This document shows, one piece after another, positions 20,427 through 24,261 of a stretch of DNA of 64,000 nt (within the stretch, counting starts at the first letter, position 1; each line of letters starts with the position of its first letter). The translations under genes were made by a program, and so were the position numbers. This DNA is from Pseudomonadota bacterium (GTDB taxonomy: Bacteria; Pseudomonadota; Alphaproteobacteria; Rhizobiales; JANQQB01). Under the pieces are notes generated by a model. That model saw only the letters and a list, made by a program, of their open reading frames with translations. It had not been told where the DNA came from and made no database searches. The DNA lies in the NCBI GenBank assembly GCA_038745065.1, contig JBCDLT010000022.1:19887-83886 (forward strand), read 5' to 3'.

Positions 20427-21290
20427 ATGCGCTTCGAATCTCCCACAACCGTTCAGGACGCGGTCGGTCTCCTGGCCGCGGAAACCGGTCTGTCACGCCT
20501 GCTTGCCGGCGGCACGGACGTGCTTGTGCAATTACGATCGGGTTTCGTCGAGCCTGACCTCGTCGTCGATATCAAACGCATTGCCGGCATGCGCGATGTC
20601 GTGCCGGAAGGCGGCGGATACCGGATCGGTGCGGCCGTATCGGGCGCGGAACTCGGCGCCCATGACGGGGTTCGCGGGCTTTGGCCGGGTGTGGTCGAGG
20701 CGCTGGAACTGATCGGCTCCACCCAGATCCAGGGCCGCGCGACGCTTGCCGGCAATCTTTGCAACGGCTCGCCGGCAGCCGACAGCGTCCCGGCGATGTT
20801 TGCCGCCGACGCCCGGGTGACGGTCGCCGGTCCGGGCGGCGAGCGTACCGTGCCGGTCATGTCCATCCCTGTCGGGCCCGGAAAGACGTCGCTCGCCCGA
20901 TCGGAATTCATCACCGCCATCCACCTGCCGGCGCGCCCGGACCGGTCATCGGACGCCTATCTGCGGTTCATTCCGCGCACCGAGATGGACATTGCGGTCG
21001 CTTCGGCCGGAGTGAGCCTGGAACTCGAACCGGACGGCACCTGTCGCGCGGCCCGGGTTGCGTTGGGCGCCGTTGCGCCCACGGTCGTGCTCGTTGAAGA
21101 TGCCGCAGCGGCACTTGTCGGAACCCGTCTGGAAGAGGGTGACCTGAAAACCCTGGCAGAGGCCTGTTCGGCGGCTTGCAATCCGATCGACGACAAGCGC
21201 GGGACAATCGAGTTCCGGCGCGACGTCGCCGCGGTGCTTGCCCGGCGCGCTGCCCTCATCGCCTATGAACGTGCGGGGGGAACACAATGA
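20427..21290 (+). CDS. Xanthine dehydrogenase/CoxM-family FAD-binding medium subunit
   Basis: GGAGG lies 7 nt upstream of ATG 20427. FAD_binding_5-type block LLAGGTDVLVQL. Confidence 0.85.
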   Translation: MRFESPTTVQDAVGLLAAETGLSRLLAGGTDVLVQLRSGFVEPDLVVDIKRIAGMRDVVPEGGGYRIGAAVSGAELGAHDGVRGLWPGVVEALELIGSTQIQGRATLAGNLCNGSPAADSVPAMFAADARVTVAGPGGERTVPVMSIPVGPGKTSLARSEFITAIHLPARPDRSSDAYLRFIPRTEMDIAVASAGVSLELEPDGTCRAARVALGAVAPTVVLVEDAAAALVGTRLEEGDLKTLAEACSAACNPIDDKRGTIEFRRDVAAVLARRAALIAYERAGGTQ

Positions 21291-21763
21291 GCCGCATTCA
21301 CGTCAACACCAGCGTCAACGGCGACGCACTCGACTTTTTGTGCGAGCCCAACGAGACGCTGCTCGATGCCCTGCGCAACCGGCTTGGGCTGACCGGGGCA
21401 AAAGAGGGCTGCGGCACCGGCGATTGCGGCGCCTGCAGCGTGACGCTCGACGGCAGCCTGGTCTGTGCCTGCCTGGTGCTGGCGGCGGAAACCGAGGGCC
21501 GCGAAGTCGGTACGGTCGAGGGTCTTGCCGACGGCGACCATCTGCACCCGCTGCAGGAAAAGTTCCTGGAACATGCGGCGCTGCAATGCGGGGTCTGTAC
21601 CCCCGGGATTCTGGTCGCCGCGAAGGCGCTGCTCGACCGGAATCCGGATCCGGACGAGACAGAAGTCCGCTATTGGTTAGCCGGCAACCTTTGTCGCTGT
21701 ACCGGGTATGACAAGATCATTCGCGCGGTGCTCGACACCGCCGCCGACCTGCGGGAGGCCTGA
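21287..21763 (+). CDS. (2Fe-2S)-binding small subunit of the molybdo-hydroxylase
   Basis: Two cluster motifs: CGTGDCGACSV and QCGVCTPG...CRCTGY. The start overlaps the upstream stop (ATGA). Confidence 0.9.
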   Translation: MSRIHVNTSVNGDALDFLCEPNETLLDALRNRLGLTGAKEGCGTGDCGACSVTLDGSLVCACLVLAAETEGREVGTVEGLADGDHLHPLQEKFLEHAALQCGVCTPGILVAAKALLDRNPDPDETEVRYWLAGNLCRCTGYDKIIRAVLDTAADLREA

Positions 21764-21764
21764 C

Positions 21765-24011
21765 ATGTCGCTGGATGAAAGCAGCAGACGCATTTTCAAG
21801 ATCGTCGGCACGCGGCCGGTGCGCCCAGACGGTGTGGACAAGGTTACCGGGCGCGCGCTTTACGGCGCCGACATGACCGCGCCGGGCATGCTGGTCGGGC
21901 ACATCCTCAGAAGCCCGCATGCCCATGCGCGGATTCGTTCGATCGACACGGCCGCGGCGATGGCCGTCGACGGCGTCAAGGCTATCGTCACCGCGGCGGA
22001 TTTCGCCGCTGCCGATGATCCGGACCTGCAGGATATCCTCGACAATTGCATGGCGCGCGGCAAAGCGCTCTATGACGGACACGCGATTGCCGCCGTAGCG
22101 GCCACAACCGACAAGGCGGCACGGCTCGCGCTGAAGCTGATAGCCGTCGATTACGATGTGCTGCCACATGTCACCGATGTCGACGACGCGATGCAGCCGG
22201 ACGCACCGGTAGTGCAGAGCGGGCGAGCCGAAGAAAACGTGCCGCCGGGCCTGTCGGAAAACGTCACGACCTATGTGGCGTTCGGCCACGGTGACCTGGA
22301 GGCCGGCTTTGCGCGCGCCGACAAGGTGATCGAGCGGCAGTTCAGGACGGCTGCGACGCACCAGGGTTACATCGAACCGCATGCCTGTCTGGCAACGATG
22401 GGACCGGACGGCAAGGCAGACCTGTGGTGCTGCACGCAGGGTCAGTACATGGTGCGCAATACCTGTGCGGCGCTGCTTGGTATGGATTCCAGCCAGTTGC
22501 GGGTTACCGCGTCGGAGATCGGTGGCGGCTTCGGCGGCAAGACCACGGTTTTCATCGAACCGGTGGCGCTGATGCTGTCGAAAAAGTCGGGCCGACCGGT
22601 AAAGATCGTCATGAGCCGGTCGGAAGTCTTCCGTGCCACCGGTCCGACTATTTCATCGTCGAGCGACATCAAGATCGGGATGACGGCCGACGGCCGCATC
22701 ACGGCCGGGCTGGCGCGGCTGCGCTACCAGGGCGGGGCATTTCCCTGCGGTACGGTCTCGTTCGGCGCGCAGAGCGCGTTTGCCGCCTACGATCTCGACG
22801 CGGTGGCGACCGAGGGCTGGAGCGTGATGACCAACCGACCCAAGGAGGCGGCCTATCGGGCGCCCGGCGCGCCGATGGCGATCTATGCAGTGGAAAGCGT
22901 GGTCGACGAATTGTGCCAGCATTTCGGGCTTGATCCGCTCGACGTGCGGCTCAAGAACGCGGCGCGCAAGGGCACCAGGTCATCCTATGGGCCAACCTTC
23001 AACGAAATCGGTCTGATGGCGACGCTGAACGCGGCCAAGGAACATGCGCATTATTCGGCGCCGCTCGGCCCGAACCAGGGACGGGGCCTGTCCTGCGGTT
23101 TCTGGTTCAATTTCGGCGGCGATACCTGCGTGTCGCTCAACATCAATGCCGACGGCACGGTCGGCGTGACGGAAGGCAATCCGGATATCGGCGGTTCGCG
23201 CGCCTCGATCGGCATGATGGCGGCGGAAGAACTCGGCATTCCGTTGGACAAGGTGCGCACGACCGTTACCGACACCAATTCCCTCGGCTATAACGACGTG
23301 ACCGACGGCAGCCGCGTCACGTTCGCTGTCGGGCTCGCAACGATCAAGGCCGCCCGGGCCGCGATCGATGAAATGTGTCGCCGCGCTGCGCTGATCTGGG
23401 GCATCGACGAGGATGCCGTGGTCTGGGAGGACGGCGCCGCCCGTCCATCCGGGCCGAATGCCGGCGATTTCGACCCGCTGAGCCTCGCCGACATCGCCGC
23501 GCGATCGTCGGAGACCGGCGGTCCGATCGCCGGCCACCACGAGGTGAACGCCGACGGCGCCGGCGTTAGCTTCGGTGTACATCTGGTCGATGTGGAAGTC
23601 GATCCGGAGCTCGGATCGGTCAAGGTCCTGCGCTATTCGATCTTCCAGGATGCAGGCAAGGCCGTGCACCCGTCCTATGTCGAGGGTCAGATGCAGGGTG
23701 GCGCCGTGCAAGGCATCGGCTGGGCACTCAACGAGGAATACATCTACGGGGACGACGGACGTCTGCAGAATCCGGGTTTCCTTGATTACCGTGTGCCGGT
23801 CGCCTCGGACCTGCCGATGATCGAACCGGTGATCCTGGAGATTCCCAATCCGGGCCATCCCTACGGCGTGCGCGGCGTCGGCGAGACGCCGATCGTGCCG
23901 CCGCTGGCGGCGATCGCCAACGCCGTGTCGCGCGCAGCCGGCGTCCGACTGACCGAATTGCCGATGTCGCCGCCGCGGGTACTGAAAGCAATCAAAGCCA
24001 CCTCGGCGTGA
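21765..24011 (+). CDS. Xanthine dehydrogenase-family molybdopterin-binding large subunit (substrate unknown)
   Basis: GGGFGGK, AYRAPGAP and GVGETPIVPP blocks. ATG 21765 follows the small-subunit stop by 1 nt. Confidence 0.9.
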   Translation: MSLDESSRRIFKIVGTRPVRPDGVDKVTGRALYGADMTAPGMLVGHILRSPHAHARIRSIDTAAAMAVDGVKAIVTAADFAAADDPDLQDILDNCMARGKALYDGHAIAAVAATTDKAARLALKLIAVDYDVLPHVTDVDDAMQPDAPVVQSGRAEENVPPGLSENVTTYVAFGHGDLEAGFARADKVIERQFRTAATHQGYIEPHACLATMGPDGKADLWCCTQGQYMVRNTCAALLGMDSSQLRVTASEIGGGFGGKTTVFIEPVALMLSKKSGRPVKIVMSRSEVFRATGPTISSSSDIKIGMTADGRITAGLARLRYQGGAFPCGTVSFGAQSAFAAYDLDAVATEGWSVMTNRPKEAAYRAPGAPMAIYAVESVVDELCQHFGLDPLDVRLKNAARKGTRSSYGPTFNEIGLMATLNAAKEHAHYSAPLGPNQGRGLSCGFWFNFGGDTCVSLNINADGTVGVTEGNPDIGGSRASIGMMAAEELGIPLDKVRTTVTDTNSLGYNDVTDGSRVTFAVGLATIKAARAAIDEMCRRAALIWGIDEDAVVWEDGAARPSGPNAGDFDPLSLADIAARSSETGGPIAGHHEVNADGAGVSFGVHLVDVEVDPELGSVKVLRYSIFQDAGKAVHPSYVEGQMQGGAVQGIGWALNEEYIYGDDGRLQNPGFLDYRVPVASDLPMIEPVILEIPNPGHPYGVRGVGETPIVPPLAAIANAVSRAAGVRLTELPMSPPRVLKAIKATSA

Positions 24012-24015
24012 CGCC

Positions 24016-24261
24016 ATGGTCAAGGTGACGATCTGGGGATCGCTGCAATCGGCCACGGACGGGGCTGAGGCGGTCGAGGTCGAGGCGCGCACGACCCGCG
24101 AATTGCTGGATCGTCTGGCCGAAGCCTATCCGGGTCTGAAGCCGCAGATCGAGCGCGGCGTTTCGGTGGCAATCGACGGTGAAATCTATCGCGACGCCTG
24201 GTTCACGCCGATCCGCGCGGATAGCGAGGTTATCCTGATGCCGTATATGGCGGGAGGGTAG
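24016..24261 (+). CDS. MoaD/ThiS-family ubiquitin-like beta-grasp protein with a C-terminal Gly-Gly
   Basis: 81 aa ending ...LMPYMAGG. The layout (MVKVTIWGSL...ELLDRLAEAYPGL...VAIDGE...) matches sulfur-carrier proteins. It starts 4 nt after the large-subunit stop. Confidence 0.75.
   Translation: MVKVTIWGSLQSATDGAEAVEVEARTTRELLDRLAEAYPGLKPQIERGVSVAIDGEIYRDAWFTPIRADSEVILMPYMAGG

Follow-up and report, generated by a model that had tools for sequence, protein, structure and literature searches.

The window analysed here, a 64-kb stretch of contig JBCDLT010000022.1 from an alphaproteobacterial genome assembly (GCA_038745065.1), contains four closely packed genes on one strand that we refer to as the cassette. 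The first three encode the flavin adenine dinucleotide (FAD), [2Fe-2S] and molybdenum cofactor (Moco) subunits of a hydroxylase of the xanthine dehydrogenase (XDH) family, and the fourth encodes a small MoaD-like protein that ends in Gly-Gly (GG). XDH-family enzymes need a labile sulfido ligand on molybdenum (Mo=S), which is installed by some factor; how this ligand is acquired and kept in bacterial molybdenum hydroxylases is understood for few enzymes, and always by way of XdhC-type chaperones. Our analysis demonstrates that the MoaD-like gene and one orthologous group of XDH-family hydroxylases occur together, and that this linkage is conserved and exclusive in both directions. The four genes are:

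20427..21290, plus strand: FAD-binding (medium) subunit, XDH family, 287 amino acids (aa), with domains FAD_binding_5 (PF00941, E 3.7e-39) and CO_deh_flav_C (PF03450)
21287..21763, plus strand: [2Fe-2S] (small) subunit, 158 aa, with domains Fer2 (PF00111) and Fer2_2 (PF01799)
21765..24011, plus strand: Moco-binding (large) subunit, 748 aa, with domains Ald_Xan_dh_C (PF01315), MoCoBD_1 (PF02738) and MoCoBD_2 (PF20256)
24016..24261, plus strand: MoaD-like beta-grasp protein, 81 aa, ThiS family (PF02597), C-terminal Gly-Gly

All seven Pfam domains of the three enzyme subunits score above their gathering cut-offs. The initial annotation, made by a model from the sequence, had described four tightly packed open reading frames (ORFs) with an 81-aa GG protein 4 nucleotides (nt) downstream of the large-subunit gene, and both the coordinates and the domains agree with that description. 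The FAD and [2Fe-2S] genes overlap by 4 nt, a single nucleotide separates the [2Fe-2S] gene from the Moco gene, and the gap of 4 nt before the MoaD-like gene completes what is one translationally coupled operon. A longer Moco ORF can be read from position 21708; we chose 21765 as the start because it fits the lengths of homologues, which are 744-755 aa.

Two-way linkage of the MoaD-like gene to one hydroxylase group

When GTDB was scanned with one genome per species, 383 stretches encoding a relative came to light; the best 80 were taken, and 82 loci were then compared; the counts of gaps and adjacency refer to a set of 89 distinct loci. The MoaD-like gene follows an orthologous Moco-subunit gene in 89/89 of these, a recurrence that takes the adjacency far beyond chance. 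Its start lies between -13 and +19 nt from the Moco stop codon in 85 of the 89 loci, with a median of 3, a spacing that points to translational coupling. Gaps of 182-202 nt are found in L032, L076 and L086, and in L087 the gap is 1.1 kb, with an opposite-strand gene for a 293-aa protein (1938-2819, no Pfam match) lying between the large-subunit and MoaD-like genes.

In each of the 82 compared loci the MoaD-like gene begins shortly after the end of a large-subunit orthologue, for the most part at 70-83% identity, and the [2Fe-2S] and FAD genes precede the Moco gene wherever the contig is long enough. At matching positions in related loci, orthologues are 57-78% identical for the FAD subunit, 57-87% for the [2Fe-2S] subunit and 60-96% for the Moco subunit. 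The same order of FAD, [2Fe-2S], Moco and ThiS-family genes stands in unlike surroundings in a Roseovarius species, in Acidimangrovimonas pyrenivorans and in a Rhodobacteraceae metagenome-assembled genome (MAG), and clustering of the flanking ORFs leaves the four cassette genes as the sole conserved unit. The next commonest neighbours are ABC-transporter genes (27/81 and 14/81 loci) and a gene resembling Old Yellow Enzyme (OYE) and pyridine-nucleotide-disulfide reductases (13/81).

The linkage extends to distant members of the family. Six MoaD-like proteins that are 41-53% identical to the window protein, from Mesorhizobium australicum, a Chromatiales-labelled genome and four metagenomic contigs, are all encoded behind an orthologous large subunit (60-64% identity); the [2Fe-2S] and FAD genes are also present in five of the six, and in the sixth (L087) the contig ends within the large-subunit gene. 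Cassette loci thus described range over Rhodobacterales, Hyphomicrobiales, the Chromatiales-labelled genome and metagenomes, with unrelated flanks, and the hosts that could be identified are Alpha- and Gammaproteobacteria.

Plasmids in PLSDB allowed the linkage to be read in reverse. The MoaD-like protein matches 37 of them, including Sinorhizobium meliloti pSymA (that of strain 1021 among others), the megaplasmid of Ruegeria pomeroyi DSS-3, and plasmids of Mesorhizobium, Shinella, Marivivens and Rhizobium. The large subunit matches 256 PLSDB records, and the identities are sharply bimodal: 37 of the 256 carry an orthologue at ~59-67% identity, and the remaining 219 carry more distant paralogues, the best-ranked of which, among the matches listed, are at most 38% identical. 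An accession-by-accession comparison shows that the 37 records with the orthologue and the 37 with the MoaD-like gene are identical sets, and the MoaD-like gene is missing from all of the other 219. The two genes adjoin each other: on S. meliloti 1021 pSymA (NC_003037.1) the MoaD-like gene occupies 1151646-1151888 of the minus strand and the large-subunit gene 1151901-1154150. The R. pomeroyi genes (SPO_RS21915-21930), which RefSeq labels 'xanthine dehydrogenase family protein subunit M', '(2Fe-2S)-binding protein', 'molybdopterin-binding subunit' and 'MoaD/ThiS family protein', include an overlap of 8 nt between the last two.

With 89 of 89 loci in one direction and an identical set of 37 plasmids in the other, the idea put forward in the initial annotation, that the GG protein is a dedicated partner of the XDH-family hydroxylase, is well supported by gene context. 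The neighbourhood survey that it had proposed also bears on fusions, of which there are none to the large subunit among the best 150 cluster representatives described below. Such a pattern is what would be expected of an obligatory, enzyme-specific maturation factor.

In three S. meliloti records in PLSDB (CP073679.1, CP130055.1 and CP130046.1) the MoaD-like gene is whole, but the large-subunit match covers 60-86% of the query or is split into pieces, and these strains may have lost an intact enzyme gene.

The MoaD-like protein and its partner enzyme

The 81-aa protein matches PF02597 at 36.7 bits (cut-off 22.5) and ends in ...MPYMAGG; it has no Cys and is for that reason not a ferredoxin. More specific family assignments all fall short of their thresholds. 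SAMP1 is the best NCBIfam match at 22.8 bits (cut-off 60), and together with moaD_arch and moaD (TIGR01682, 21.4 bits against a cut-off of 66.15) it makes up a group of matches at 21-23 bits with cut-offs of 50-66. The same three models provide the best sub-threshold matches across the family, in which none of 47 diverse members reaches any NCBIfam cut-off. A ThiS identity was considered and rejected: TIGR01683 does not match the window protein and matches only two of the 47 members, weakly, and no thi genes adjoin the cassette.

An AlphaFold2 model of the protein (predicted local distance difference test, pLDDT, 91.8, with a low-confidence C-terminal end at which residue 81 scores 40) predicts a beta-grasp fold of the MoaD/CysO/SAMP1 type. 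The top structures in a Foldseek search are CysO, MoaD and SAMP1, at template-modelling (TM) scores of ~0.8 (4n6e_B, 3dwg_C, 3po0), with MoaD 1fm0_D at 0.80; matches to ThiS are weaker, at 0.48-0.51, and ubiquitin is also much weaker. By sequence, the nearest solved chain is 1v8c, a 'MoaD related protein' of Thermus thermophilus (E 0.008).

Conservation within the family centres on the C terminus. The terminal GG is invariant in 30/30 close members (alignment A1) and in 47/47 diverse members (alignment A2); in A2, whose sequences are 26-58% identical to its first sequence, only P39, G80 and G81 are invariant, and W7, W62 and F63 are conserved in the Rhodobacterales-type clade. Among Rhodobacterales-type loci the protein is 65-79% identical, comparable to the FAD subunit, and the gene appears to be under purifying selection. 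A search with the protein gave 287 matches, the best 120 of which are all 81 aa long and 67-100% identical, mostly from Rhodobacterales. In a profile search against 1.84 billion cluster representatives, 166 clusters matched at E<=1e-10 and 777 at E<=1e-3; the best 150 representatives are all short (55-186 aa), and nearly all full-length ones end in GG. The sole long match, P0312, appears to be an ORF called wrongly across the end of the large-subunit gene, and was rejected as a fusion.

A clade whose core ends in ...LPQIAGG (P0282, P0285, P0287, P0294, P0300, P0332, P0337 and P0349) differs in that many of the called proteins run on for 3-60 residues beyond GG, with sequences that are mutually unrelated. 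Either the stop codon is often missing in this clade, which would imply proteolytic processing, or the extensions are artefacts of gene calling or assembly.

The cassette gene is not the general MoaD. One locus, L026, carries the cassette together with a canonical pgsA-moaD-moaE cluster 8 kb downstream. The canonical MoaD of this locus scores 58.9 bits against TIGR01682, for which the cut-off is 66.15, and the adjoining gene matches MoaE (NF007959, 149 bits, short of the 175 bits required of an equivalog); in the same locus the cassette protein gives no TIGR01682 match and by BLASTP shows no similarity to the canonical MoaD. Apart from this separate cluster no moaE was found in the cassette flanks of ~90 loci, and the 64-kb window contains no moaD or moaE besides the cassette gene, whose distribution tracks one enzyme orthologous group. 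The L026 record (CP059262.1, 1135308-1155550) is titled 'MAG: Exiguobacterium profundum', a Firmicute; its cassette is 64-76% identical to that of the window and its pgsA-moaD-moaE arrangement is one that we take to be alphaproteobacterial, and probably the organism label is wrong or the assembly is mixed.

The partner enzyme, as far as its sequence tells, is an FAD/2Fe-2S/Moco hydroxylase that represents an uncharacterised orthologous group of the XDH family, and none of its subunits reaches any NCBIfam equivalog cut-off. The top NCBIfam matches of the Moco subunit are 4-hydroxybenzoyl-CoA reductase (4-HBCR) alpha (430.2 bits, cut-off 994.55) and XdhA (428, cut-off 780), and its nearest solved chain is 4-HBCR alpha (1rm6_A, E 4e-90), followed by CoxL. 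The enzyme shares its three-subunit layout with HcrABC of Thauera aromatica (1rm6), the closest solved relative of its large subunit; we know of no MoaD-like gene adjoining the hcr genes. Against 4-HBCR beta the FAD subunit scores 121.9 bits (cut-off 404.55), its 287 aa matching the 321-position profile in two separate stretches only, and against 4-HBCR gamma the [2Fe-2S] subunit scores 160.7 bits (cut-off 257.8). With alpha, beta and gamma all far under their cut-offs, an identity as 4-HBCR is not supported, and it is despite such scores that automatic annotation at times gives the large subunit this name.

The active site of the Moco subunit appears typical and resembles that of sulfido-dependent hydroxylases. 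The motif GVGETP, with the catalytic Glu, aligns with GVGES of CoxL (1n5w_B) and GIGES of 8uem_A, and IGGGFGGK aligns with IGGGFGNK of CoxL, so that the GGGFG motif is kept. The active-site loop AAYRAPGAP aligns with AYRCSFR of CoxL, Ala replacing the copper-binding Cys. The absent copper Cys and a TIGR02416 score of 278 against a cut-off of 991 speak against an identity as aerobic CO dehydrogenase (CoxLMS), and no coxD/E/F/G gene turned up among the ORFs scanned. The N terminus of the [2Fe-2S] subunit, MSRIHVNTSVNGD, lacks a twin-arginine leader, and the enzyme is therefore probably cytoplasmic.

Genes for cofactor synthesis or maturation do not accompany the cassette as a rule. A Pfam scan found no XdhC/CoxI-, CoxD/E/F/G-, MocA- or MoaE-like protein among ~50 ORFs of the window, and a six-frame phmmer search of the window gave no match to PaoD, YqeB or MocA of E. 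coli, nor to the XdhC-like and MocA-like proteins of locus L010; the earlier observation that no XdhC/CoxDEFG-type maturation gene lies by the cassette is upheld. The L010 proteins come from the only such case in ~90 loci, where a clear gene of the XdhC/PaoD type (E 1.7e-42 against PaoD of E. coli) and a weak match of the MocA type (E ~1e-3) lie at 7036-8840, 1.5-2.4 kb downstream of the cassette, in a 15-kb stretch with no second XDH-family large subunit. Genes for MoaE, MoeB, MoaA or other steps of Moco biosynthesis do not accompany the cassette in the ~90 loci, the L026 cluster being separate, and no conserved JAMM peptidase or CysM-like gene lies near it; the constant neighbours are the three enzyme subunits. 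The window does encode an enzyme of the E1 type that activates MoaD-like carriers:

49415..50197, plus strand: MoeB-subfamily E1 (ThiF family), 260 aa, PF00899 E 5.6e-78, NF004281 329.9 bits against a cut-off of 266

This gene lies between coaBC (47704-48957) and secB (50218-50721), 25 kb from the cassette, and in ~90 other loci no E1-like gene was found within 8-10 kb of the cassette. The initial annotation had suggested that this E1 possibly serves the GG protein, and as a specific link that suggestion is not supported: the presence of moeB in the window is incidental, though a housekeeping MoeB could still be the activator and is the obvious candidate.

Possible roles of the MoaD-like protein

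The reading that we favour, tentatively and with limited confidence, is that the MoaD-like protein is a sulfur carrier that is activated by an E1, is specific to this enzyme and acts in cofactor maturation, where it most likely would supply or restore the terminal Mo=S ligand. Several features lead us to it: the invariant GG terminus, the lack of MoaE or any other biosynthetic partner in the conserved unit, the possibility for a genome to encode a canonical MoaD as well as the cassette, the direct coupling of the MoaD-like gene to that of the large subunit, and the need of XDH-family enzymes for some factor that provides their labile sulfido ligand. We infer the mechanism of sulfur supply as follows. 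A housekeeping E1 of the MoeB type would adenylate the flexible C-terminal GG of the 81-aa protein, and the adenylated tail would then be converted to a thiocarboxylate. The charged protein might bind to the large subunit, or to the cofactor immediately ahead of its insertion, and deliver sulfur to the molybdenum cofactor of the enzyme, most likely as the terminal Mo=S ligand, which could be either installed or restored in this way. A stronger form of the proposal, in which the thiocarboxylate is itself the direct Mo=S donor for one group of XDH-family enzymes, with a tail that reaches the molybdenum and could resulfurate the enzyme, is possible but doubtful. If true, it would add a third route to sulfurated Moco, beside the route through XdhC and a cysteine desulfurase and that of the eukaryotic Moco sulfurase.

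Several considerations weigh against a sulfur carrier of this kind. To our knowledge there is no precedent for a thiocarboxylate as Mo=S donor, and the established sulfuration routes use the persulfide of a cysteine desulfurase on Moco bound to XdhC or ABA3. Sulfido donation, dithiolene synthesis and a chaperone role could all leave the same trace in gene context, which by itself does not tell them apart. In L010, the genes resembling xdhC and mocA suggest, mildly, that the enzyme still uses the ordinary XdhC insertion route and speak to that extent against a plain replacement of XdhC, and XdhC-type factors may simply be encoded elsewhere in cassette genomes; the ordinary route is compatible with sulfur delivery to an XdhC-bound cofactor as well as with direct delivery. 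Finally, the AorD and AorE proteins of a tungsten aldehyde oxidoreductase (AOR) are likewise no more than 'putative maturation factors' (PMC6365974).

The comparison with AOR, which the initial annotation had drawn, is apt. A strict adjacency of MoaD genes to tungsten AOR genes, in many cases along with MoeB, MoaE or MoaA, was described in 2006 (PMC1779556), and AorD and AorE of Aromatoleum aromaticum are putative tungsten-cofactor maturation factors that are absent from the purified enzyme (PMC6365974). As in those clusters, a GG protein that is a putative maturation factor is encoded here beside a pterin-dependent oxidoreductase and apart from the genes of general Moco synthesis. In contrast to them, the partner enzyme belongs to the unrelated XDH family (Mo, FAD, 2Fe-2S) and not to AOR, the cassette lacks MoeB, MoaE and MoaA, and its identified hosts are Alpha- and Gammaproteobacteria, whereas those listed for AOR clusters are archaea and sporadic bacteria. 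We regard the likeness as an analogy in logic, not as family membership.

The usual explanation for AOR-linked MoaD genes could also be applied to the cassette, whose product would then be a paralogue of the molybdopterin (MPT) synthase small subunit, dedicated to this enzyme: its thiocarboxylate, acting with the MoaE of the cell, would add the dithiolene sulfurs to cyclic pyranopterin monophosphate (cPMP) and so boost the pterin supply of the enzyme or channel pterin to it. The fold and the GG tail match those of MoaD, the best sub-threshold NCBIfam matches include moaD_arch and moaD beside SAMP1, and strictly adjoining MoaD genes (PMC1779556) and AorD/AorE (PMC6365974) provide precedent. We nevertheless consider this role unlikely. 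MoaE, MoeB and MoaA, often present in AOR clusters, do not accompany the cassette in ~90 loci; such a protein would be redundant in L026, where canonical MoaD and MoaE co-exist with it, and it has no BLASTP similarity to the canonical MoaD of that locus. We know of no enzyme-specific pool of MPT. The cassette protein does share with canonical MoaD its fold, its length of 81 aa and its C-terminal GG, and differs in that its gene is not beside moaE and is distributed with one enzyme group and not with Moco biosynthesis.

It is also conceivable, with a probability that we judge to be small, that the protein carries no sulfur at all and is a non-catalytic assembly chaperone or a fourth subunit bound to the large subunit, with its tail placed, for example, in the cofactor or substrate funnel; it would keep the apo-enzyme ready for Moco insertion or stabilise the complex. 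Tight coupling to the large-subunit gene suggests co-production, no E1 is linked, and the whole sequence is highly conserved in the Rhodobacterales-type clade, including W7, W62 and F63; beta-grasp subunits with no known catalytic role do exist, TmoB being one (PMC1779556). Such a role leaves the terminal GG unexplained, since this hallmark of E1-activated carriers, needless in a structural subunit, is invariant among proteins with 26-58% identity to the A2 reference, and AorD and AorE are missing from purified AOR (PMC6365974).

A carrier or ubiquitin-like modifier serving some purpose other than the cofactor, either by feeding sulfur, as a thiocarboxylate co-substrate, into the small molecule on which the enzyme acts or by conjugation to targets as with SAMP1, seems quite improbable. 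CysO and SAMP1 are among the top Foldseek matches, SAMP1 is the best NCBIfam match of the window protein, and the extensions beyond GG in the clade ending in PQIAGG could imply processing; those extensions may equally be artefacts, and no conserved JAMM, E1, CysM-like or biosynthetic gene lies nearby. The cassette protein thus resembles the CysO, SAMP1 and Urm1-type carriers and modifiers in structure and in its GG terminus, and departs from them in having no CysM, JAMM peptidase or E1 linked to it. The remaining possibility, raised in the initial annotation, that this is an ordinary, general MoaD (the only one of its genome) placed by chance beside a molybdoenzyme operon, is effectively refuted: the window has no other moaD or moaE, which would fit it, but the linkage is strict both ways, the TIGR01682 score lies far below that of the canonical MoaD of L026, and in L026 a canonical moaD-moaE pair stands alongside the cassette.

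Returning to the enzyme-specific sulfur carrier, its closest functional counterparts would be the XdhC and PaoD chaperones, which are also dedicated accessory proteins encoded with XDH-family enzymes and presumed to be needed for a sulfurated cofactor. XdhC binds Moco and takes sulfur from a cysteine desulfurase; the MoaD-like protein differs completely from it in fold and family and would be a carrier of the E1-activated type. A private MoaD-type carrier that accompanies one well-separated group of XDH-family enzymes points to a further, putative step in cofactor maturation. The enzyme is widespread and especially common in marine Rhodobacterales, and the presence of the cassette in tractable model strains, S. 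meliloti 1021 (pSymA) and R. pomeroyi DSS-3 (megaplasmid), makes the question of Moco sulfuration directly testable. Our literature searches found no description of an association between XDH-family enzymes and MoaD/ThiS proteins, nor of the R. pomeroyi or S. meliloti loci, and the association is absent from a 2006 survey of beta-grasp gene neighbourhoods in prokaryotes, in which the word 'xanthine' occurs 0 times (PMC1779556). What is new here is the logic of the AOR-MoaD pairing in another enzyme family, without accompanying biosynthesis genes, for a gene that databases label only 'MoaD/ThiS family protein'.

Flanking genes and other features of the window

Genes upstream of the cassette in other loci offer hints, and no more than a lead, that the substrate is an aryl-CoA, because ligase and OYE-like genes recur there in a minority of loci and because of the affinity of the enzyme to 4-HBCR. 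An OYE-like gene (Oxidored_FMN and Pyr_redox_2 domains) lies 86-627 nt upstream on the same strand in nine loci, and its homologue in R. pomeroyi is annotated by NCBI as a 'bifunctional salicylyl-CoA 5-hydroxylase/oxidoreductase'. A gene for an AMP-dependent ligase is located ~95-135 nt upstream in four loci and is similarly placed in a fifth (L051), for which the distance was not computable. Loci with an upstream gene resembling 2-aminobenzoyl-/salicylyl-CoA monooxygenase-reductases, with the ligase, or with both are L003, L005, L006, L016, L046, L047, L049, L053, L056, L061, L070 and L072. The R. pomeroyi locus, L090, has the same type of upstream neighbour at 1-2794, with tryptophan 2,3-dioxygenase and an alpha/beta hydrolase nearby, which may hint at a substrate from the kynurenine pathway.

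Upstream of the operon in the window itself lie a cupin gene (19832-20275, plus strand), a gene for an esterase of the hormone-sensitive lipase family (18797-19687, minus strand; NF058665, 372 bits against a cut-off of 320) and a gene for an FAD monooxygenase of the PRK07538 type (17512-18765, minus strand). We considered these three as parts of the operon and rejected them: a counterpart of the cupin gene occurs in 0/82 loci, and clustering retains the four cassette genes only.

The ~50 window ORFs covered by the Pfam scan are ordinary alphaproteobacterial housekeeping or catabolic genes. An Rfam scan of the whole window at gathering thresholds identified tRNA-Arg alone, with no Moco riboswitch or other RNA element, and a scan for promoters and terminators around the operon returned nothing above shuffled expectation. 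Directly downstream of the cassette, the 1.85-kb stretch 24262-26110 opens with an AT-rich segment at ~24290-24370 and has a G+C content of 0.57 (composition window 24001-26000), against ~0.60-0.66 in other composition windows. Its two long ORFs, 24401-25237 and 25285-26028, have TTG starts and match no Pfam family, and the stretch could represent a small foreign insertion or an orphan gene pair.

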